IMG/VR virus record: IMGVR_UViG_3300027763_000050
Coordinates: 14,368 to 78,367 of that record
Strand: one strand, 5' to 3'
DNA: 64,000 nt
Origin: a virus
The notes below the pieces were generated by a model. The model made no database searches. It saw only the letters and a list, made by a program, of their open reading frames with translations, and was not told the origin of the DNA. The position numbers and the translations under genes were made by a program. This document shows positions 8,921-43,129 of the stretch, one piece after another. Numbering within the stretch: the stretch's first letter is position 1; every line of letters starts with the position of its first letter.

Positions 8921-9370
8921 CTATTGATTGGCGGCTGTTTTGCCTTCCTGTTCGTCCCAAGGGTTATTGATTAGTTCAGCCTGGTCGTCGATATAGTCCC
9001 TGCCGCCTTGTTCGGAGCGATAAGCTGCCAATTCCTCGAGGGTGCGGCGAGCGAGGATTGTGGCGCCTTTGATATATTCCTCCAACGGAATGTCCTCCTC
9101 TGCTAGCTTGCCAGCAAGAAGGGGCCCAAGAATCGCCAGGTAAGAACTTGTAAAAGCATCGGGGATGTAACCGTTGAAGCTGGCTCCCCCGCCAGTAAAA
9201 CCGTTCACTAAGTACTCAAGGTTGACCAGGCGCTGATTTATTGAGCCCAATAGTTCTGCTGACTGAGCTTGCATTAAGGCCTGGGATTTTAGCAACTGTT
9301 CGAGGAGAACGAGGTTTTGCTTGGAGACATCTAGGAAAGTGAGATTCTCATTCATCGATGGAAATGTCAT
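8921..9370 (-). CDS. hypothetical protein
   Basis: 149-aa ORF in the leftward operon. Confidence 0.6.
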   Translation of the reverse strand: MTFPSMNENLTFLDVSKQNLVLLEQLLKSQALMQAQSAELLGSINQRLVNLEYLVNGFTGGGASFNGYIPDAFTSSYLAILGPLLAGKLAEEDIPLEEYIKGATILARRTLEELAAYRSEQGGRDYIDDQAELINNPWDEQEGKTAANQ

Positions 9371-9771
9371 AGCTGATAGAGGGAGTGTTATCGGGCCGAG
9401 AGAAAAAACGCATCAGACCAAGGGCGCCCCGTCTTTCGGGAGGGAGCAGGTTCCAAGCGGTCTGACAAGTAACTTCATCGTAGGTGGAGATAACGGCGCG
9501 AACGTCCGCGCAGGTAGAGCAGGTTAAAAGGGAATTAAGCGCTGACTGGATATGAGCAGAGGAGGTAGAGGGAAGTGGGCGCTGCAATGACCCGCCAGTC
9601 GGTGGGCTTGTGCTTGGCGATGTAGTCATTAGCTGATTGGTGCGAGTCAATTCTTTGTAGAGAATATGAAGCGGTTGGGGTATGGAGAAAATTGTCAGAA
9701 GGAACTGGGGAAGACTCGGGAATTGATTCCAGCGTAGACATCGGTAGATTCAGTGAAGGTTAGATAAAACA

Positions 9772-10083
9772 ATGAAGCAAATTGAAAGCTCAAAGGAGCA
9801 GGAGAACGTAATGGAATCCCGTATGGACGAACAGTTCGCCTATGAACGACTTGTGAGGTCCTTGGACGGGGCGACCAGGGCTGAGCTAGTCGAGATGTGC
9901 AGACTTCTGGCTAAGCAGAGTCTGGTTCTGTACCCAGCAGCCATGCGTTATATGGCGAACGAGGCGGCGCGCAACCTATCGGGCGGAGGGCTTGGATGGA
10001 AGACGCGGGAAGCTGAACGGCTAGTAGAGCTATTGACGGACGGCCAGGGAGTGTCAACTAATACAACCTCCCCGGAAAGCTAG
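9772..10083 (+). CDS. possible NblA-like phycobilisome degradation adaptor
   Basis: MDEQFAYERLVRSLDGATRAELVEMCRLLAKQ resembles the NblA two-helix pattern (EQxF...R+EL.E....L.+Q); similarity is weak. Confidence 0.4.
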   Translation: MKQIESSKEQENVMESRMDEQFAYERLVRSLDGATRAELVEMCRLLAKQSLVLYPAAMRYMANEAARNLSGGGLGWKTREAERLVELLTDGQGVSTNTTSPES

Positions 10084-16814: not shown

Positions 16815-17594
16815 TTAGAAGGTCAACGATTGCCCAGCCGCAATGACATCAGGGTTGTTTAGTCGGTTCTTTGTGACCAGTTGTTCGACGGTGGTACCAG
16901 TGGCGCGGGCTATGTCGGTAAGGGTATCGCCGCTTCGGACCGTTACTTTGCGCGGCTGGACTGGCGCTGCTGCAACTGGAGCGGGGCTAGGGGAAGCTGC
17001 CGGGAACGTATTGAACTGACCGCCAATTCCAAATCCCTGCCTGCCTGCCCCTGTAGTTCCAGCCAAAATATCAGGAGAATCTGCGATTGCCCCGACCAAA
17101 TCGCCGCGAGAAATGGCCTTTTTCGCGGTGTCCAAGGCCGCCATTACGTCGCCGCCGCTGGCAGCATTGAAGTCGTAGCGCTCTTTAGGGGCTATCTCAT
17201 AGCCAGTGGGCGTTGACTTGGCCCACATTCGCCCGGTCACAAGGCGACCAAGAGAGTCAAAGGGGTTTTTAGATTGCGAATAATCCCCGTAGTTGATGGC
17301 CGTAAACCCATCCTTGCGAGGTGCCTTGGGATTAGATTCAGCGCGGTTAATAGCATCGCCCAGGGCTTGACGAGTTGCGGGAAGAAAAGATGAAGGGCTG
17401 ACCTGCTCTTGCCTGCCGGTTACAGCCCTATAGGCATTATTGGCAGCATCTAAAGCAATGCTTCCCTTGGAGACCAAGGGATTGGTCGGGGCGATCTTGC
17501 CAAATATCTGCCCTGCGAATCTAAGATTACGAAGAGCTGACTCAGCTCCGGTTGCCTTCCCTGCTGCGTTTAAGAGCGACTCTAGTAAGTTCAT
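16815..17594 (-). CDS. LysM-domain protein
   Basis: C-terminal VTVRSGDTLTDIA...TTVEQLVTKNRLNNPDVIAAGQSL after a Pro/Ala linker. Confidence 0.85.
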   Translation of the reverse strand: MNLLESLLNAAGKATGAESALRNLRFAGQIFGKIAPTNPLVSKGSIALDAANNAYRAVTGRQEQVSPSSFLPATRQALGDAINRAESNPKAPRKDGFTAINYGDYSQSKNPFDSLGRLVTGRMWAKSTPTGYEIAPKERYDFNAASGGDVMAALDTAKKAISRGDLVGAIADSPDILAGTTGAGRQGFGIGGQFNTFPAASPSPAPVAAAPVQPRKVTVRSGDTLTDIARATGTTVEQLVTKNRLNNPDVIAAGQSLTF

Positions 17595-20013: not shown

Positions 20014-20595
20014 TCAAGCTGCTTGATTCTTTTCGAGCTGCGTGATACGCGCCTCAAAAGCTTCCATGCGTGCGGCAAGAGGATCAACGCGGTTGTGTGT
20101 GTATCGATCTATAACTCCGCCATGAAGAGAAATGCCTCGTTCAACTCGATCGGCGATAGTCTTAATTGCCTGGTCGCTGCGGGCAAACTCAAACATGAGA
20201 GCTCTAAGCACGCCCGCATAATGTTCGCTTCTATCTACTGTGGAATCAGGAAAGCCAGTGTCGCCGTAGTTGCCGGTAATTGCTTCGCGAATAAAGTCTC
20301 TAAGGGTGTCGATGAACTGGGAATTTTCGAACAGGCGCCAGGCAGATCGGGAAAAGAAATTTGCGCGTCTCTCCATGGCACCTGCCAGGTCTTCAATCAG
20401 ATCAGGAAAAAGATCCAAGATGTGATTGGCAAGATTCGAACACATGAGATTGCGGGATAACTGTGCAATCTCATCTTGAGAGAGCGGACGATGAAAGCCA
20501 TGATCCCTGGCTGACTTAATCTCATCTTGGTAAGCAACAAGCAGCCGATCAAGTTGATAGAGATTGTGTGAAACGTTGACGTTGTCGGTAGTCAT
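20014..20595 (-). CDS. helical/coiled-coil protein immediately downstream of E1
   Basis: ATG 1 nt after the ThiF stop; C-terminal heptads. Confidence 0.6.
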   Translation of the reverse strand: MTTDNVNVSHNLYQLDRLLVAYQDEIKSARDHGFHRPLSQDEIAQLSRNLMCSNLANHILDLFPDLIEDLAGAMERRANFFSRSAWRLFENSQFIDTLRDFIREAITGNYGDTGFPDSTVDRSEHYAGVLRALMFEFARSDQAIKTIADRVERGISLHGGVIDRYTHNRVDPLAARMEAFEARITQLEKNQAA

Positions 20596-20596
20596 G

Positions 20597-21295
20597 TCAG
20601 GAAATAGCAAAGGAAAAGGAGCGGCCGTTGAATCCCAGTTGGGAGTAGAGATTGTTGAGCTTGTTATCCAGGAAGTTTTGGACAACAAGCAGCGCGCTGG
20701 TAGCTGCCAGGGAATTGGCAGCAATTAACTGCGGGCGCGAAGGTGCGTGTTCCATGCAGCCGCCCGATCTCGGTATCGTGTCCCGAGGTGATGCAAGGTT
20801 TTCGCAGGTGAGGCGAGGGTCAATGCCAAAGGTGGTGTCATCGATCAGACCCCAGAACTGGACCTGACCCTTGATGTCTTCGGTGCCGTCGGAATTGCCG
20901 GGACTGATCCAGAGGAAGTTGCGGTTACTGCTGAGGCGCTCACCCATTACCTCCAGAGTTGCGGCCCGAGTGGCGTCGTTGTCTACGGCAAGAACAATCA
21001 AGGGCTGCTGAGCTTGCTGCAACAGACGCCGCAACATATTCTTATCTAGGTATTCGGAGTAGGGCTGAGCGTTTAGACCTTGACTCTCAAGGTGCCGAGC
21101 CAGGGAGACCGCTTTATTGACGCCGATGTCAGCGGGGCCAACGATCTGGCGGGTAATGTTCTTGTTTTCGTAGGAGTCGCCGTCAATGATGGCAAACTGC
21201 GGCTCCTCGCAGGAATAGGTAAGCAACCGGGCCAGTGGTGCAGCGAGGTGACCGCCTGTGCCGCCAGCGCCAATCAATAGGCAAGTGTCAATCAT
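20597..21295 (-). CDS. ThiF/E1-like ubiquitin-activating enzyme
   Basis: IGAGGTGG, DGDSYENKNITRQ, GVNKA, AVDNDATR, and candidate catalytic Cys in GGC...PQLIAAN. Start MIDTCLL overlaps the upstream stop (ATGATTGA). Confidence 0.9.
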   Translation of the reverse strand: MIDTCLLIGAGGTGGHLAAPLARLLTYSCEEPQFAIIDGDSYENKNITRQIVGPADIGVNKAVSLARHLESQGLNAQPYSEYLDKNMLRRLLQQAQQPLIVLAVDNDATRAATLEVMGERLSSNRNFLWISPGNSDGTEDIKGQVQFWGLIDDTTFGIDPRLTCENLASPRDTIPRSGGCMEHAPSRPQLIAANSLAATSALLVVQNFLDNKLNNLYSQLGFNGRSFSFAIS

Positions 21296-22337
21296 TGGGG
21301 ATCTGTCCGATAAGGGTGTTGCGGTGAATAAACCATTGACGTAAAAGAGCATCTGCTTCGGTAATGAAGCCTTCGTTGTTGAACACCGTGGCCCGCTTGA
21401 CATAGGCCGCAAGCATCCCGCTCTCACCCACGGTGCCTATGCCGGCAGTGCGTAGCTGACGGAAAGCGTCGCGATGAAGTTGCGGGTGAAGAAGTAGTAA
21501 GGCATCTGCGCCGCTGCGATACTCGAAGCTGGGGTCAGCGGGGACGGATGAAGAAAAAGAATTAATTTCGGAAGCGTTATCCCGGTATTGATCGAGAGAA
21601 AGTAAATCGTCGTTTGAAGGTGTGGCAGCAAACGTACTTATTGCCTGATCAATTGACGTCGGGAAGTCAGAGCGTGTCCCCCAGCAGACGTAATCATTGT
21701 CAGCAAAGCAATTTAGATTTCGCTCCACGCCAGACAAGCGAACTTCGCTGTCATCCGCTGAGCTGGTGACGCATTGTAAATATGAGCGTATGTTTGGTTT
21801 TCGTTCGCCATCCTCGGGCAATAAGGCTATAAATTTATCAGGAAGGAAGACACTGGGCTTGAAATAAAACTCAAAGCAAGTAGGTGCAAGTTTATAGTCT
21901 TCGTCAGCATTGTCACTGGAATCGCCAACGTCATAGCCTTCCGGGCATTGTTCATTGTAATAACTACTAAAGCCTTCCCGATAAGCGTCACAGCAAGAAG
22001 TAGTAGTAATGACGTAACTATTCCCATCGTGATCCTGTCCATCATCTACGTGCTCATCAAACCAATAGCGACAACTGCGGCAATTTGAAGAAATAAAATT
22101 TTCCTCATCAAAACCCTGACCTAAATGTTGTGCATCGGCCCAGCCATCAGGTAGCCAAACCCTGACGATTATGCCGTCATGTTGATGGCTGTAACCCACC
22201 AGGTCGGCGTTACTTGGCAGGTGTTCGAGATGTACCGGAGGCGGCGCCGAGGGAGAGAGGAGTGATAAATTCAAAATCGTCGGATTCGGCGGCTGATGGA
22301 TCGAATCCGGTGTGTTGCTCAATGTCGGCAAGGGCAT
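21288..22337 (-). CDS. prokaryotic E2-like conjugating enzyme (family D/PRTRC-B-like) with Cys-rich N-terminal domain; start uncertain
   Basis: LNCFADNDYVCWG...FAATPSNDDLL resembles the NxxxDGxICWG...FxxSxFNxDL E2 pattern; sits between JAB and E1. Confidence 0.65.
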   Translation of the reverse strand: MPLPTLSNTPDSIHQPPNPTILNLSLLSPSAPPPVHLEHLPSNADLVGYSHQHDGIIVRVWLPDGWADAQHLGQGFDEENFISSNCRSCRYWFDEHVDDGQDHDGNSYVITTTSCCDAYREGFSSYYNEQCPEGYDVGDSSDNADEDYKLAPTCFEFYFKPSVFLPDKFIALLPEDGERKPNIRSYLQCVTSSADDSEVRLSGVERNLNCFADNDYVCWGTRSDFPTSIDQAISTFAATPSNDDLLSLDQYRDNASEINSFSSSVPADPSFEYRSGADALLLLHPQLHRDAFRQLRTAGIGTVGESGMLAAYVKRATVFNNEGFITEADALLRQWFIHRNTLIGQIPND

Positions 22338-23292
22338 AGGAAAGCTCGGAGTAGAGATCGCGGAGGGAGTCGTGGTCGCCAGCAGCGGTGAGGTATTGAA
22401 TGGCGTTAGTAACGTCGTCGATGATGTCGGACACTTGCTGGTATGAACTTTTTTGACGCGGCATGTATGGACTCCAATTGCCGCCAAGGTCATTGCCCCA
22501 GCCGTCATCCCAGGAGTAGGGGTCCGAAATGCTGCCGTAGTGGAAATTGGCGCGCTGATCCTTGGCCTCTGTGCCGGACTTGCCAGATGTGATTACGGGC
22601 TTGAACAGCGGCCAGACGCCGATCGTTATGGCAGTCAGTACGTTGGGATGAAATGTGACGCCGTTTACTGGTGTTGTATCAACGACAAGGTTGTGGTCAA
22701 TGGCGAAGCGCCGTTTGCCCGCTGTAATGGAAGCAGTAAGTGCGTATGACATTTTCTGGGAGTCGATGCTGCCAACAACAATGTGCAGGCCTGGATCGCC
22801 GAGCTCGTATTTGTCATCGGTGCCAGAGAAGAAAGCCGCCATGGTGTTGTGGCTGTGGGATGAGCCGCAAGGAGTCCAACCATCGGGCGGGTAGCTGGTA
22901 ACTGTCTCGCCGGTGATGATGTCAATGGCTTTATCGAAGCTCTCGACGCGGACACTGGCTGCATCAACTTCTTGAACGGGTACAAGCAGACGGAAGCAAG
23001 TGGGATCGCTTTCGCTGCGAAGAATGCGAACAGAGACCTCGGCCTGACTTGGGACCTTGGTGACGTAATGGAAGGTGAGCTGAATCCAAGCAGCCCAGAG
23101 ATCGGCTGGAATTCGGGCAATGTTATTGGCGGGTTCAAACTTCTTGAGGTTCTCATCGGTGATGATTGCGTTGGCGGTAGGGTCATCGACGGGGCTGAGG
23201 TATGAGCCCCAGGAGTTAGCGGCAACTTTCCAGCAGCCACTGCGGTGAGTGCGAAGAACGCTGGGGGAACTGGGTGCGGTGGCTGAAGTCAT
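22210..23292 (-). CDS. JAB/MPN metallopeptidase (deubiquitinase-like)
   Basis: Candidate catalytic Glu (QAEVSV) and HSHNTMAAFFSGTDD JAMM motif, then GLHIVVGSID. Confidence 0.88.
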   Translation of the reverse strand: MTSATAPSSPSVLRTHRSGCWKVAANSWGSYLSPVDDPTANAIITDENLKKFEPANNIARIPADLWAAWIQLTFHYVTKVPSQAEVSVRILRSESDPTCFRLLVPVQEVDAASVRVESFDKAIDIITGETVTSYPPDGWTPCGSSHSHNTMAAFFSGTDDKYELGDPGLHIVVGSIDSQKMSYALTASITAGKRRFAIDHNLVVDTTPVNGVTFHPNVLTAITIGVWPLFKPVITSGKSGTEAKDQRANFHYGSISDPYSWDDGWGNDLGGNWSPYMPRQKSSYQQVSDIIDDVTNAIQYLTAAGDHDSLRDLYSELSYALADIEQHTGFDPSAAESDDFEFITPLSLGAASGTSRTPAK

Positions 23293-23311
23293 TGGGATAG
23301 AGGAGGAAGTA

Positions 23312-23334
23312 AGCCCCAGCGGGAGGCCGGGGCT
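23312..23334 (-). terminator. GC-rich hairpin between Ubl and JAB (weak terminator or stabiliser)
   Basis: AGCCCCGGC-CTCCC-GCTGGGGCT, 9-bp stem, followed by a pyrimidine tract rather than a full U-run. Confidence 0.55.
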
Positions 23335-23342
23335 GGTGACGA

Positions 23343-23870
23343 TCAACCCTTGGCTTCGCTGGTGACTGAAGCGCGGACGATGGTGCCAGGGGCGACAACG
23401 GACGAGGGCACCAGGATTTGCCCCTCGGCAACGAAGCGTGCGCGATTAACGTCAATACCGAGCTCGCCTTCGTAGAGGGAGAAGAGTTCATGGAGGCTTT
23501 TGCCGTCAGCGATTGCGGCGGGGACTTCGACAAGTGCGCCGTCGTTTGCGGTTAGTACAACGGGGGGCTTGGCTGCAGCTGAAAGATTTTCAAAGAAGCT
23601 TCCAGATGTGGGGTTGTTATTGGCAGCTTTTGGTTCGGAGGTAGTGCCGGCGTCGGGCTCGGTGTATGAAGCGTGGCCAACGGTTATAGATTCATAGAAG
23701 GTTGCGCCGGCAGTGGCTTCTTCGGTGACGGCAACCTTGGAGCCGTTGTCTGCGCTTACTGCGACTGGACTTTCGGCGGGAGTTTCAGGGGGTAAAACAA
23801 ACTCAAGGGTGGTGACAAGGAACTTGTAAGCGGACTTGTAAGCGGATTTAAGAGCGGAAAAGGGAGACAT
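23343..23870 (-). CDS. ubiquitin-like (beta-grasp) protein with long N-terminal extension, ending ...SEAKG
   Basis: C-terminal ~75 aa fit a beta-beta-alpha-beta-beta-beta pattern and end in Gly; first gene of the JAB-E2-E1 cluster. Confidence 0.7.
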   Translation of the reverse strand: MSPFSALKSAYKSAYKFLVTTLEFVLPPETPAESPVAVSADNGSKVAVTEEATAGATFYESITVGHASYTEPDAGTTSEPKAANNNPTSGSFFENLSAAAKPPVVLTANDGALVEVPAAIADGKSLHELFSLYEGELGIDVNRARFVAEGQILVPSSVVAPGTIVRASVTSEAKG

Positions 23871-25549: not shown

Positions 25550-26161
25550 CTATTTGATTGACCAATTACGGCGTTTAACAAGTTCAGCTCCGGGGACTGT
25601 GGTGCCGGCTTTGATTGCAGCTTTGATTGCGGTCTTGTCTGGGGCGTATTTGATCGTCTCCCGCAACAGGTCATTGGGGATCAAGCCCTCGTCAACAACA
25701 TCGACGGCCTCGCTGACCCGTGATACAAGCTCATGGGTGGGGAAGGAGAAGCGGGTGTTGTCGGGGTTGAGTTTGAGAAGGATGTCGATCAGGTAGGTCT
25801 GAAGTTTTTCGGCGCGGCGTTGATCGGCTTTAGCGAGGGCGGCAAGACGGTCGGCCTCCTTGGCGCGGAAGTCAGCCTTGCCGTGAAGTGCGTCGATTAC
25901 ATGGCAGACCTGATCGGCCTTGGTTGTTAGGGCCGACCTGGCGGATTCATCGAGGGCGAGGAAGTGCTCAACCAGTCCCCGGGCTGTGTCCTGCTGTTCG
26001 GGGTCGTCGGAGTCAAGGAGTTCAGCGGCAAGGGCTAGCTCACCGCTTACCTCTTGGACTTGGATTGCGAGGTTGAACAGGGTCGGGGAAGAGCTCGAAG
26101 TGGTGGAGAGTTCCGTCTGGGCAGATGGGAGGCGGGTTGCCGTTGGCGAAGTTGTGGACAT
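25550..26161 (-). CDS. siphovirus Gp157 family protein
   Basis: Coiled coil KEADRLAAL..., then VDEGLIP...PDKTAIKAAIKAGTTVPGAEL. Confidence 0.85.
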   Translation of the reverse strand: MSTTSPTATRLPSAQTELSTTSSSSPTLFNLAIQVQEVSGELALAAELLDSDDPEQQDTARGLVEHFLALDESARSALTTKADQVCHVIDALHGKADFRAKEADRLAALAKADQRRAEKLQTYLIDILLKLNPDNTRFSFPTHELVSRVSEAVDVVDEGLIPNDLLRETIKYAPDKTAIKAAIKAGTTVPGAELVKRRNWSIK

Positions 26162-26444
26162 ACGTGTTGAGTGATTGAGGGCTGTCAAAGGCGATTGACC
26201 AAATGAAGTCAGGCTTTTCGCAGTGGACCAGCAGGTAATCGGGCGTGACTGCGGTGAGGGTGTAGCGGCCAACAACCGTGTCGGCGGGAAACGGTGCTAG
26301 CGCTGCCTTAAACCAGGCGACTAGGCGGAGGGCGAGGGGAAACCACATGAATGGCGCAAGCTGGAGCAAGCAGAGTATGGCAGCGAATAGCGTGAAAGGA
26401 AAGCCCCAGCATGCGGCTGCACACCAGGGCTTCAGGGATGGGTG

Positions 26445-41599: not shown

Positions 41600-43129
41600 A
41601 TGGCTGTAACTTCGATCGCCCTGGCGCACAAGCGATCAGCAAAGCTTGCGGCAAAAGCTGTAGTCAAGAAACCAGATATTGTGGTCACGCCGCCACATGT
41701 AATTAAAGCGCGTAATAGTTTCGCGTATTTTTGCGAGCTTATGGGTCATCCCCCTGCTGCTCACATGAAGAAATGGCACCAGGAGTTGCTGACCGGCAAT
41801 GGCAATGATCACCTCAAGTGGGTGGCAGGGGCAAACACCGTTCTCTTGAGCCCGCGGGGTTCGGCCAAGAGCACTGTTATTGGGATGTTTGTTGCCTGGC
41901 TTATCGGGAAACACGCGATTGAAAAGAAGCTACTCCGCACCCTCTATGTTTCGTACAACGTAGACGTAGCAAGGAACAAAAGCGCTGCGATCAAGAACCT
42001 AGTCCAATGCAAGGAGTATAAGGAGATCTTCCCGACAGTGCGGCTATCTAAGGGGAGAACTAGCGATGAACTCTGGTCCATTGATTTTGACTATGCACAA
42101 ATAGACGTAAGGGGCGAGGACGCATTCACTATTGCCTGCGCAGGCCTCAAGGGGACCATTACATCCAAGCGAAGCAGCCTGGTAATCGTGGATGACGCCA
42201 TCAAGTCTGCGGCAAGTATTCAGAACCCGGACATCCGCCGTGAGATGGAGGCGAACTGGTCAAACGTGATTGTCCCGACGATGTTTGAGGGTGCTCGGGC
42301 GATCTGCCTTGGTACTCGATTCCACTTTGATGATCTATTCGCAACGATCTATACAGAGGCTAAGGGCTGGAAGGTGATCACCCAGACGGCCCTCTCATAC
42401 GACGACGACGGGAGGCCAAAGTCCTATTGGCCGTCCCAGTGGTCCACAAAATACCTGTTGCAGCTCCAGGCGGAGGACAGAACGGCCTTTGCTTACCAGT
42501 ACCTGAATACACCGGTAAGGAGCACCGAGCTGGGCATATCGCCTGACTTGTTCGTGCGCGGGGAAGTGCCCGATGACTACGACTCGATTGGGGTTGGGAT
42601 CGACTTGAGCGCAGGGCTGGGCGAGCGCAATGACTGGACAGTTTTTACGTTGGCTGGCCGGCATGAGGACAAGTGCTACATCATTGATTACAAGCGAATG
42701 AAATCAATGGGCAACCTCGAGAAAGTCGAGGCCCTATGCGAGCTGCTGGTTGAGTGGAACCTGCTGAACGTCAATGAAGAGGGCCAGTATTTCGCTAGCA
42801 CCTCACCAGTGACTATCTGGCCAGAAGCCGTGGCCTACCAAAAGTCATTTGAGGGGGATTTGCGGCGGATGCTTTTCAACGAATGGGGCCTCTACAACTT
42901 GAACGTCAAGCCTGTTTCTGGGTTCAGGGGAGACAAGCTGGCTAGATTACGGGGGATCCTGGGCCTATTCCAGGCGAAGCGAGTTATCTTCAACAAGTAC
43001 AGGGACTTTACCTGCATGGTGGACGAGATTATCAATTTCGGCCACGCCCCTCACGACGACTGTGCAGACTCCCTCAACATGGTTGTATCTGGGCTGATGC
43101 GCAGAGGGAACGCCCATATTGAATGGTAA
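41600..43129 (+). CDS. terL: terminase large subunit
   Basis: PRGSAKST Walker A, VIVDD Walker B, GTRFHFDDL, GIDL..DWT nuclease motif, HDDCADSL. Confidence 0.95.
   Translation: MAVTSIALAHKRSAKLAAKAVVKKPDIVVTPPHVIKARNSFAYFCELMGHPPAAHMKKWHQELLTGNGNDHLKWVAGANTVLLSPRGSAKSTVIGMFVAWLIGKHAIEKKLLRTLYVSYNVDVARNKSAAIKNLVQCKEYKEIFPTVRLSKGRTSDELWSIDFDYAQIDVRGEDAFTIACAGLKGTITSKRSSLVIVDDAIKSAASIQNPDIRREMEANWSNVIVPTMFEGARAICLGTRFHFDDLFATIYTEAKGWKVITQTALSYDDDGRPKSYWPSQWSTKYLLQLQAEDRTAFAYQYLNTPVRSTELGISPDLFVRGEVPDDYDSIGVGIDLSAGLGERNDWTVFTLAGRHEDKCYIIDYKRMKSMGNLEKVEALCELLVEWNLLNVNEEGQYFASTSPVTIWPEAVAYQKSFEGDLRRMLFNEWGLYNLNVKPVSGFRGDKLARLRGILGLFQAKRVIFNKYRDFTCMVDEIINFGHAPHDDCADSLNMVVSGLMRRGNAHIEW

Follow-up and report, generated by a model that had tools for sequence, protein, structure and literature searches.

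A ubiquitin-like modifier, JAB, E2-like and E1 gene cassette of predicted conjugating function in an uncultivated freshwater phage

Organization of the gene cassette

Four adjacent genes of an uncultured phage of freshwater origin, encoding a ubiquitin-like protein (Ubl), a JAB peptidase, an E2-like protein and an E1, are predicted from their sequences and structural models to form a working Ubl-conjugation cascade that belongs to the phage and uses thioester chemistry, a reading to which we assign a probability of roughly two in three. The genes lie in an IMG/VR virus record of 78,367 bp, of which the window analysed here is a stretch of 64,000 nucleotides. An earlier sequence-only reading of the window had spoken of a cyanophage; the viral nature stands, the record being that of an uncultivated phage, and we infer with good reason that its host is a cyanobacterium. 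The genes run on the minus strand from 23870 to 20597 in the order Ubl, JAB, E2-like and E1, tightly packed or overlapping, and the four co-oriented ORFs and the motifs quoted in that reading were all present. The 8-nt overlap that it had noticed between the E2-like and E1 genes was real (21288–21295), and the 3′-end of the JAB gene overlapped the E2-like gene by 65 nt or 128 nt, depending on whether the latter starts at TTG 22274 or ATG 22337. No promoter or terminator signal above shuffled expectation was observed inside the cluster, and this, together with the overlapping or abutting genes, was counted in favour of one cascade unit. The cassette is situated in the early/replication arm of genomes that are apparently lytic.

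A possible fifth gene (20014–20595, minus strand) encodes 193 aa and has its ATG 1 nt past the E1 stop codon, in the position occupied in related cassettes by a conserved small helical protein of 110 to 190 aa with a common N-terminal motif, T-rich/VNDxLVxxDNLLxA. Alignment with the relatives by hhalign covered the first 31 residues (P 9e-4, probability only 22%), and hmmsearch for the fifth-protein family was negative in this ORF; thus, it is regarded as a possible member by position, homology to the protein of the relatives not being established.

Ubiquitin-like protein

The Ubl gene (23343–23870, minus strand), supported by its ORF and by homologues, encodes 175 aa, of which the first 90 or so form an N-terminal extension to a beta-grasp domain (residues 91–175, nt 23346–23600, minus strand) that has a flexible C-terminal tail and ends in Lys174-Gly175, the Gly175 codon being nt 23348–23346. 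The last 75 or so residues had been proposed to fit a beta-grasp pattern, and the C-terminal 85 residues were indeed modelled as such by AF2 (model m08046cd363bc, pLDDT 83), with the topology b-b-a-b-b-b and a tail of low confidence. Foldseek matched the model to SUMO, ubiquitin, NEDD8 and ISG15 (probability 1.00, E about 2e-4), and the VIA matches (Z 7 to 9.8) were all beta-grasp proteins, TtuB and MoaD among them. The fold, the exposed flexible tail and the terminal Gly of a ubiquitin-like beta-grasp modifier were thus all found in the predicted structure. The SEAKG end was kept in all four near-identical homologues; twelve distinct remoter homologues were found in viral loci, immediately upstream of JAB, and an E-x-K-G terminus was invariant across 14 Ubl sequences. 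Five relatives carry 1 or 2 residues beyond the Gly (F, RH, LG, AA and S), as in a Ubl precursor. Weak matches to Pfam ThiS or Ub-Mut7C were obtained for 3 of the 14 members, those to ThiS for two (E 0.006).

JAB peptidase

The product of the second gene (22210–23346, minus strand; 378 aa from TTG 23346 or 360 aa from ATG 23292) possesses the full JAMM motif, E...HxH(x7)S(xx)D, whose residues E103, H164, H166, S174 and D177 were invariant in 24 homologous sequences; by this catalytic motif it belongs to the JAMM/MPN+ metallopeptidases. Pfam Prok-JAB (PF14464) matched it with an E value of 7e-5 and 23.1 bits against a cut-off of 25, and is carried by many of its homologues, while NCBIfam PRTRC_A gave 5e-6 and 26.2 bits against a cut-off of 101.8. 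Its assignment as a JAB peptidase, made previously from the ORF, is therefore upheld by both invariant residues and profile matches. Ahead of the catalytic part lies an N-terminal domain some 100 residues long, in which R32 and W46 were invariant, and the C-terminal tail region overlaps the E2-like gene. In four relatives, the JAB gene is interrupted at the HxH motif by group I introns, which fits an expressed gene under selection.

E2-like protein

The E2-like gene (21288–22337, minus strand) belongs to a family of 56 homologous clusters, in which N163, C172, W173, N196 and D198 were invariant (53 homologues), the first three lying in an invariant N(x8)CWG block; the codon of the candidate catalytic residue Cys172 is nt 21686–21684. 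Homologue alignment also revealed a conserved N-terminal block, PxxVHxxxLP, upstream of GTG 22199, and the start is therefore placed at TTG 22274 or ATG 22337; the E2-like identity proposed earlier for this ORF was retained, and the GTG 22199 start with which it had been read was not. In the predicted structure (AF2, pLDDT 89, built from the GTG start and thus missing about 25 conserved N-terminal residues), a UBC-like core, a four-Cys insert (C40, C43, C70 and C85 in GTG-22199 numbering) and a C-terminal SH3-like barrel were distinguished. C172 is situated 11 residues ahead of a helix, and the invariant Asn lies 9 residues before the invariant Cys.

The structural neighbours of the model in VIA were nearly all UBC/UEV folds, with modest Z scores of 3.5 to 4.9 that are to be read with caution, unrelated models often reaching 7 to 8; about 30 of the top 35 VIA-wide matches were E2 or UEV proteins, as were all 11 pdb_via matches with Z of at least 3.6. 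Foldseek with the same model returned no match, nor did the phage protein match Pfam or NCBIfam; the cut-off of Pfam Prok-E2_D (PF14460) was not reached within the family, four of the 53 members giving weak matches (best E 0.009). With hhalign, the N...CWG...NxDL block was aligned to the active-site block of an NCBI-annotated Prok-E2_D protein at a probability of 70% (E 4e-5), over 41 columns only. The model superimposed on eukaryotic E2s with an rmsd of 3.5 to 3.7 Å over 99 to 107 residues, and the corresponding values for the validated bacterial E2 BilB are 3.0 to 3.4 Å over 93 to 99 residues (PMC10557695); BilB resembles eukaryotic E2s no better than the predicted phage structure does. The His of classical E2s was not conserved, no alignment column after C172 having at least 30% His in 53 sequences, and the Glu/His set that follows the Cys in CEHH-type E2s was absent. 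Taken together, the earlier suggestion that this VCWG-containing ORF is E2-like gains support from the predominance of UBC/UEV neighbours, modest as their Z scores are, and from the Prok-E2_D active-site alignment.

E1 activating protein

The E1 gene (20597–21295, minus strand) encodes a single-domain ThiF/MoeB-type protein of 232 aa, with more than 200 clusters of homologues of about 235 aa. Pfam ThiF (PF00899) matched it above cut-off (E 1.8e-11, 44.1 bits versus 28.1); NCBIfam PRTRC_ThiF gave 1e-12 and 47.9 bits versus a cut-off of 144.75, the next best NCBIfam matches being ThiF and MoeB, and PADLOC Cap2 "E1-E2" models matched the nucleotide-binding part. The protein carries the motifs GAGGTGG, DGDxxExxNxxRQ and VDNDATR; GxGGxG, DxDxxExxNxxRQ, VDNxATR and GxC(x5)SxPQL were invariant among homologues. 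By its score and its ATP-binding motifs, it accordingly belongs with the ThiF/MoeB/E1 adenylating enzymes. A candidate catalytic Cys and a lack of Zn-binding CxxC pairs had been pointed out before, and both observations hold: loop Cys180 (codon nt 20758–20756) did not vary among 15 homologues, and CxxC pairs are lacking. A ubiquitin-fold domain for E2 docking was likewise absent. The same minimal ThiF build is found in sulfur-carrier systems. As had been expected of the three proteins, those of ThiF and Prok-JAB type were recognized by motif and profile and that of Prok-E2_D type by its active-site alignment.

A GG terminus is characteristic of known sulfur carriers. The cassette could instead serve a sulfur-carrier or acyl-adenylate pathway, in which the E1 would convert the Gly of the Ubl into a thiocarboxylate, as with ThiS, MoaD, CysO and QbsE, and the JAB would do no more than mature that carrier; the "E2" would then have an accessory or sulfur-relay function instead of a conjugating one. 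The minimal ThiF/MoeB-type E1, with ThiF and MoeB as its best matches after PRTRC, the weak ThiS matches of two of the 14 Ubls, the presence of TtuB and MoaD among the structural neighbours of the Ubl, and the known pairing of JAB with sulfur carriers (Iyer et al. 2006, rows 4a-e) are consistent with such a pathway, but it is rendered improbable by the KG terminus, by the third protein with its UBC-like fold and E2-type Asn/Cys block, and by the gene neighbourhood: no rhodanese, cysteine desulfurase, thiazole/MPT synthase or other acceptor enzyme was detected in the 9 neighbouring ORFs scanned. The absence of thiamine or molybdopterin genes nearby, remarked upon in the sequence-only reading, agrees with the neighbours tested, none of which was a sulfur-metabolism partner. 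For its Lys-Gly terminus, the neighbours tested and the weakness of the ThiS matches, the Ubl was rejected as a ThiS/MoaD-type carrier.

Distribution and conservation in viral genomes

The synteny search that had been suggested recovered the Ubl-JAB-E2-E1 order in 21 other viral contigs, at only 22% to 59% identity, and the recurrence of four genes in the same order puts the cassette far beyond chance. Carriers include S-EIVl-like phages of 56 to 90 kb as well as unrelated psbA-bearing phages of 258 to 284 kb, and the cassette is common to phages with a TerL 47% to 80% identical to that of the source phage. The cassette recurred in freshwater metagenomes of a dozen studies; hardly any close relatives turned up in 185,579 cellular genomes or 50,697 GenBank phage records, and the cultured relative S-EIVl lacks the cassette. 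The catalytic residues of E1, E2 and Ubl were retained in the relatives in which each was found, and at least two unrelated lineages of cyanophages have conserved the cassette without loss of catalytic residues. No published description of the phage cassette was found in the literature searched.

Two other uses of the same proteins were considered in this context. As a counter-defence decoy or eraser, the JAB would strip host Bil-type or Cap2-type conjugates, with Ubl, E1 and E2 competing with or saturating the host machinery. Host Ubl-based immunity exists, and of the cassette proteins JAB shows the strongest conservation, at 41% to 59% identity versus 22% to 27% for E2; however, a lone deconjugase would suffice, yet E1, E2 and Ubl are kept with their catalytic residues, and none of the tests here placed the JAB closer to BilC or Cap3 than to the class 6d/PRTRC type, making this role very improbable. 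Somewhat less remote, but still unlikely, is a defensive use, in which the same chemistry would act as a superinfection-exclusion or anti-competitor system that tags structural proteins of other phages present in the same cell, as in Bil. The Bil operons, the only ones of Ubl-E1-E2-JAB content whose function is known, work against phages by attaching the tag to a tail protein (PMC11601596; 10.1101/2023.09.04.556158); the movement of the cassette among unrelated phage lineages, in the manner of an accessory module, and its absence from S-EIVl would suit such a system. Against it are the early/replication-arm location in apparently lytic genomes instead of a lysogeny or moron context, the PADLOC results, in which the generic E1 part of Cap2 was the sole match, and the absence of a CapH/CapP or CapW-type regulator among the neighbours tested.

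Comparison with known systems

The nearest known kind is the Prok-E2_D-type operon class 6d (Iyer et al. 2006), together with PRTRC, no curated cut-off of these being reached. Class 6d, exemplified by Trichormus variabilis ATCC 29413 plasmid C, has an E2 with an absolutely conserved His C-terminal to the catalytic Cys, a JAB with an N-terminal alpha+beta domain containing conserved Arg and Trp, and an extra alpha-helical operon protein (Iyer et al. 2006). Shared with the phage cassette are a standalone Ubl, an N-terminally extended JAB, a single-domain ThiF E1 (32% identity over 121 residues), a standalone E2 with an alignable active-site block, N...(I)C(W/F)G...N-x-D-L (hhalign probability 70%), possibly the helical fifth protein, and mobility, class 6d residing on plasmids and ICEs whereas the phage cassette resides in phage genomes. 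The two differ in gene order (E2-JAB-E1 in Trichormus versus JAB-E2-E1), in the larger phage E2 with its four-Cys insert and SH3-like C-terminal domain, and in the conserved His, which the phage E2 lacks. The JABs were aligned by hhalign in the catalytic half only (probability 48%); the Ubls shared no sequence similarity. A point in common is that the Trichormus Ubl-like ORF has ...GTKG ahead of a C-terminal extension and the phage Ubl ends in ...KG.

PRTRC (NCBIfam TIGR03734–TIGR03742), a ParB-related, ThiF-related cassette of plasmids and genomic islands, supplied the best NCBIfam matches of the phage E1 and JAB, namely PRTRC_ThiF and PRTRC_A; its protein B has the N...C-x-G block in common with the phage E2 (hhalign E 9e-4, probability 23%), and protein C of Deinococcus ends in ...TKG. 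PRTRC B, C, D, E and F had no matches in the cassette, and membership was rejected since the two matches scored far below cut-off (47.9 vs 144.75 and 26.2 vs 101.8 bits) and no ParB was found in the 9 flanking ORFs scanned.

Bil (BilABCD, types I and II), a bacterial ISG15-like anti-phage system, resembles the phage cassette in comprising a Ubl, an E2, a JAB deubiquitinase and an E1, in its thioester-type catalytic cysteines, and in having no E3, the E2 presumably choosing targets; it is cellular and defensive whereas the phage cassette is viral, and was rejected for its multidomain IAD-AAD-CYS E1 (versus a single domain of 232 aa), its order Ubl-E2-DUB-E1 and its CEHH set, absent in the phage. 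E1, E2 and JAB-type parts are also shared with Bub (6E/DUF6527) and type II CBASS Cap2/Cap3. Bub employs Tyr/Ser oxyesters without a catalytic Cys, fused proteins and a DUF6527 serine protease, versus separate genes and invariant cysteines in the phage, and no DUF6527 match was obtained in any ORF scanned; CBASS Cap2 joins E2 and E1 in one fusion protein and has a CD-NTase as its conjugation substrate, versus separate parts and no CD-NTase seen in the phage. Of the "PRTRC, Bub types" to which the cassette had been likened, PRTRC thus remains as a distant relative and Bub does not.

Proposed mechanism

In the conjugation cascade favoured here, the ThiF-type E1, expected from family knowledge to be a homodimer, would adenylate the free C-terminal Gly175 of the Ubl, which would be loaded onto the invariant loop Cys180 of E1, handed to Cys172 of the E2-like protein and moved by the latter to a lysine of a target protein. 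Because no E3 is present, the Zn-type four-Cys insert and SH3-like barrel of the E2 probably choose the substrate. The JAMM peptidase may reverse conjugation and, in relatives whose Ubl continues past the Gly, may also trim the extra residues. The genes form a single overlapping unit within the early/replication arm; tagging would most likely occur early, inside the infected cyanobacterium, on host or phage proteins.

A broader and more tentative proposal is that of a virus-confined Ubl-conjugation family, with which unrelated cyanophage lineages might tag host proteins (e.g. those of defence, proteolysis or the photosynthetic antenna) or their own proteins early in infection, the Zn insert and SH3-like barrel of the E2 replacing an E3. 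If true, this would be a bacterial-virus counterpart of the exploitation of ubiquitination by eukaryotic viruses.

In the literature searched, the only demonstrated cases of prokaryotic Ubl conjugation are weapons of the host against phages (CBASS Cap2 and Bil) and the Bub operons, for which a role has been suggested, whereas the phage cassette is a complete Ubl kit owned by a virus. Its compactness, with four or five small proteins and no E3, recommends it as a minimal model of how an E2 directs the choice of substrate, and it could illuminate the class 6d/PRTRC cassettes of plasmids. If the cassette conjugates, phages would use it to remodel the proteome of infected cyanobacteria through Ubl tagging, or to fight one another or host immunity, which would constitute a new layer of phage-host conflict.

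Gene organization of the cassette

The four genes of the cassette were all located on the minus strand. The Ubl gene (nt 23870–23343) encoded a protein with the C-terminus SEAKG; the JAB gene started either with a TTG overlapping the Ubl stop codon (TTGA) or with an ATG at nt 23292, and ended at nt 22210; the E2-like gene ended at nt 21288, and the E1 gene occupied nt 21295–20597. These four ORFs and all the motifs quoted for them in the sequence-only reading were present when residue coordinates were checked, as was the 8-nt overlap that it had described between the end of the E2-like gene and the start of E1. The E2 homologues share an N-terminal block, PxxVHxxxLP...SY, which in the window maps upstream of GTG 22199; this GTG was thus ruled out as the start codon, and translation of E2 must begin at TTG 22274 or ATG 22337, within the 3′-end of the JAB gene. 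In the resulting overlap (nt 22210–22337), one stretch of DNA is read in two frames, serving as the end of JAB (its final 22 to 43 codons) and as the beginning of E2. Such an overlap was not found in the relatives, in which the two genes are separated by, or overlap by, 0–50 nt, and it is due to a C-terminal extension of the JAB of the window phage, a tail absent from the relatives' JAB. A promoter and terminator scan inside the cluster gave no signal above shuffled expectation, which fits a single polycistronic unit.

Downstream of E1, and in most loci immediately behind it, the relatives encoded a 110–190-aa protein characterized by a T-rich start and by the motif VNDxLVxxDNLLxA. The window has at this position an ORF of 193 aa, which begins with MTTDNVNVSHNLYQLDRLL and starts 1 nt past the E1 stop codon. 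Alignment by hhalign of 31 residues, MTTDNVNVSHNLYQLDRLL, with the fifth gene of the relatives gave P 9e-4 and a probability of 22%, and an HMM built from that gene did not detect the 193-aa protein; this ORF is a positional counterpart only.

The Ubl protein

Sequence search with the 175-aa Ubl returned only four near-identical proteins, all terminating in SEAKG; in the close relatives P0002 to P0004, the N-terminus was shorter by 15 residues. In the related viral loci, the genes that immediately precede JAB formed a clear family of 86–98 residues, with the N-terminus M-S-F-F-x-Q-I-R and an invariant E-x-K-G at the C-terminal end. Five of these proteins had one or two residues beyond the Gly (F, RH, LG, AA and S), the pattern of putative Ubl precursors in need of trimming by a peptidase. 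Residues 91–175 of the window Ubl corresponded to the whole unit, its internal SFFENL aligning with the N-terminus of the relatives (MSFFxQI), and were preceded by an extension of about 90 residues, the start of which, MSPFSAL, resembles the same motif. The gene (nt 23346–23870) thus seems to hold the family N-terminal motif twice (MSPFSAL and SFFENL), with about 85 low-complexity residues in between.

The beta-grasp fold that had been proposed for the C-terminal region of Ubl was borne out by three structural analyses. The AF2 model of residues 91–175 had a pLDDT of 83, the order b-b-a-b-b-b and a floppy tail; Foldseek matched it to SUMO, ubiquitin, NEDD8 and ISG15 at a probability of 1.00, and in a VIA search, with Z up to 9.8, all neighbours were beta-grasp proteins. 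Neither PRTRC protein C nor the Ubl-like ORF of Trichormus resembled the Ubl profile.

The E1 protein

The 232-aa E1 had a Pfam ThiF score exceeding the cut-off. GxGGxG, DxDxxExxNxxRQ, VDNxATR and PGN were kept in 15 aligned homologues, in which Cys180, situated in the loop G-x-C(x5)S-x-PQL, was invariant, while CxxC pairs and extra domains were absent. The homologues comprised more than 200 clusters of about 235 aa, all metagenomic and none informatively named. In a conjugation cascade, the reading we prefer, E1 would adenylate Gly175 of Ubl. An activator of the ThiF type and its Ubl might instead belong to a sulfur-carrier pathway, which we regard as unlikely.

The E2-like protein

In a search of the full library by HMMER, 56 E2-like clusters of 300–390 aa were found, with C70, C85, N163, C172, W173, N196 and D198 invariant and C40 and C43 nearly so. 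The AF2 model (pLDDT 89) consisted of three parts, namely a core (residues 1–230), a four-Cys insert and a C-terminal SH3-like barrel. Searches of PDB and BFVD with this model by Foldseek gave no significant match, and the E2-family profile gave chance-level matches only against PDB sequences. Exhaustive VIA returned a list made up almost wholly of E2, UEV and RWD folds, including BubB (Z 3.5–4.6, about 100 residues aligned, rmsd about 3.6 A), and in a second-look structure search every one of the eleven chains that reached a Z of 3.6 was UBC or UEV. Judged on an absolute scale, these Z values are low, and their weight rests on the uniformity of the list. BilB, an experimentally validated bacterial E2, matches eukaryotic E2s with an rmsd of 3.0–3.4 A over 93–99 residues (PMC10557695), no better than does our model.

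Independently of these searches, hhalign linked the family profile to a protein of Trichormus variabilis plasmid C annotated at NCBI as a prokaryotic E2 ligase family D protein (probability 70%, E 4e-5), with identical residues at N163, C172-(W/F)-G and N196-x-D198-L; a weaker alignment with PRTRC protein B covered the same N...C-x-G block. Weak Prok-E2_D matches were given by four members of the family and by the gene adjoining JAB in the cultured Vibrio phage D69. The ESM Atlas offered weak leads only (score 0.8; one viral cluster 14% Prok-E2_D), and NCBIfam scans of the family gave scattered chance-level matches, none to PRTRC. Assignment as an E2 is quite probable, with Cys172 as the candidate catalytic residue, to which a thioester would be relayed from Cys180 of E1 before Ubl is moved onto target lysines. 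Complex prediction with two copies of E1, Ubl and E2 scored 0.02, which is no answer and counts neither for nor against.

The JAB peptidase and selfish elements

Homologues of JAB fell into more than 345 clusters, many with a precomputed Prok-JAB domain. The JAMM signature was complete and invariant in 24 aligned JABs (E103, H164-x-H166, S174 and D177), and the conserved N-terminal region included the invariant R32 and W46. A peptidase of this kind could act as a counter-defence eraser, a role that we hold to be very improbable for the cassette; in the preferred conjugation cascade, JAB would be both maturase and deconjugase.

Group I introns (Rfam RF00028, 55–83 bits) split the JAB gene of four relatives within the catalytic motif, at the exact boundary of GSSHSH and NTM (L016:6405–6645, L017:6408–6644, L018:6405–6645 and L022:7254–7527), while the JAB gene of the window had no interruption. 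The interruption in L022 was about 1.1 kb and contained a 301-aa ORF, possibly a homing endonuclease. ORFs starting with MTKNSPRIYIYK or MHPRIYTYK flanked or broke up the cassette in several relatives (L015:4952–5839 and 8940–9938, L013:9000–9809 and L018:4451–5506), and in L015 one of them replaced the Ubl gene immediately upstream of JAB. Their start has what we take to be a GIY-YIG-like look. Together with the JAB introns, these ORFs point to the cassette as a hot spot for selfish elements.

Genome setting and distribution

The source record is an IMG/VR virus of 78,367 bp with a CheckV completeness of about 91%, and the window covers bases 14368–78367. It encodes a large terminase (TerL, nt 41600–43129), virion proteins, an endolysin and a primase/helicase. 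The terminase had 47% identity to that of Synechococcus phage S-EIVl, which was the sole near relative in 50,697 GenBank phage records, and the cassette region was found repeatedly in freshwater and lake metagenomes from about a dozen studies (2017–2025); a freshwater cyanophage with a putative cyanobacterial host is thus a reasonable inference. The cassette shares a minus-strand arm, opposite in orientation to the structural arm, with the primase/helicase and a gene for a Gam-like/Siphovirus Gp157 protein (nt 25550–26275; PHROG 253, E 7e-26; Pfam, E 2e-23). The same strand also encoded a protein (nt 16815–17594) that carries a LysM domain at its C-terminus (E 2e-12), and most other early genes had no family assignment.

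A scan of IMG/VR by pattern and by tblastn with the JAB profile yielded 21 loci. E1 was encoded in all of them and E2 was detected by tblastn in 17; three of the other four had a 346–362-aa ORF in the E2 position, and L019 had none. Wherever the upstream flank was present and undisturbed, it held an ORF with K-G at the C-terminal end, followed by at most two further residues. The synteny search proposed in the sequence-only reading thus found the same order in related IMG/VR loci, Ubl-JAB-E2-E1 without exception where all four genes were found. Carriers included S-EIVl-like genomes, with TerL 77–80% and 47% identical to that of the window, as well as complete phages of 258 kb and 284 kb with psbA and without a similar terminase; S-EIVl itself lacked the cassette. 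In an 85-kb relative holding the locus L006, an 895-aa open frame (G006:C1:54348–57011) matched the window TerL in two pieces (residues 4–89 and 86–509) about 1.1 kb apart, a pattern that would be expected of an intein.

The same patterns had a single match in 185,579 species-representative genomes of cellular organisms, on a 4-kb MAG contig, a result which, being pattern-based, rules out close relatives only; PF14460 was absent from all 401 genomes searched in the phylum to which this match belongs. GenBank phages gave no nucleotide match to the cassette region by blastn, and the cultured ones contained no close relative, only distant analogues with hypothetical or generic annotations. Vibrio phage D69 (OZ195729.1:170957–179379) had adjacent genes with a weak Prok-E2_D match (E 4e-4) and a Prok-JAB match above cut-off (E 1e-8), and in the same cluster a degenerate E1-like gene (251 aa) that kept only the C-terminal E1 motifs. 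Bacillus jumbo phages had JAB-like and ThiF proteins; in vB_BceM_WH1 (LC597490.1:180017–188625), a weak JAB, gp215, lay beside ThiF gp216 and NADAR gp217.

Comparison with known systems

Chance ORFs were ruled out by conservation, and the lambda-type tail-assembly Ubl/JAB (TAPI/TAPK) by the site in the replication arm, the presence of E1 and E2, and the absence of an NlpC/P60 domain. Phages are mentioned by Iyer et al. (2006) only for the lambda/T1 tail-assembly Ubl-JAB pair, the arrangement of which differs from that of the cassette. The closest kind is their class 6d, exemplified by the Trichormus plasmid operon and comprising a Ub-like protein, a JAB with an extra N-terminal domain, an E1-like, an E2-like and an alpha-helical protein (Iyer et al., 2006). 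PRTRC gave the best NCBIfam matches for the phage E1 and JAB, far under the cut-offs. PRTRC protein C terminates in TKG and the Trichormus Ubl-like ORF has GTKG followed by a C-terminal extension, both echoing the KG end of the phage protein. However, the cassette differs from class 6d and PRTRC in its phage replicon, its gene order, the different architecture of its E2, which is without a conserved His downstream, the absence of ParB among the nine flanking ORFs scanned, and a Ubl to which theirs show no sequence similarity. In Bil, E1 is multidomain and the genes stand in another order, Bub has no catalytic cysteines and uses oxyester chemistry, and CBASS Cap2 is an E2-E1 fusion.

None of the four proteins belonged to a PHROGs family, PADLOC matched only the generic E1 part, and a full-text literature search found no paper on a phage-encoded Ubl-E1-E2-JAB operon of this kind. 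A role in exclusion or defence, for which Bil would be the model, seems rather unlikely. Owing to its differences from class 6d, PRTRC, Bil, Bub and CBASS, the cassette falls outside all curated families and is a new virus-borne form of known operons. Folds, motifs, invariant catalytic residues, synteny and distribution form the observed basis of the preferred reading, according to which, with a probability of roughly 0.68, the cassette encodes a working conjugation cascade in the service of the phage.
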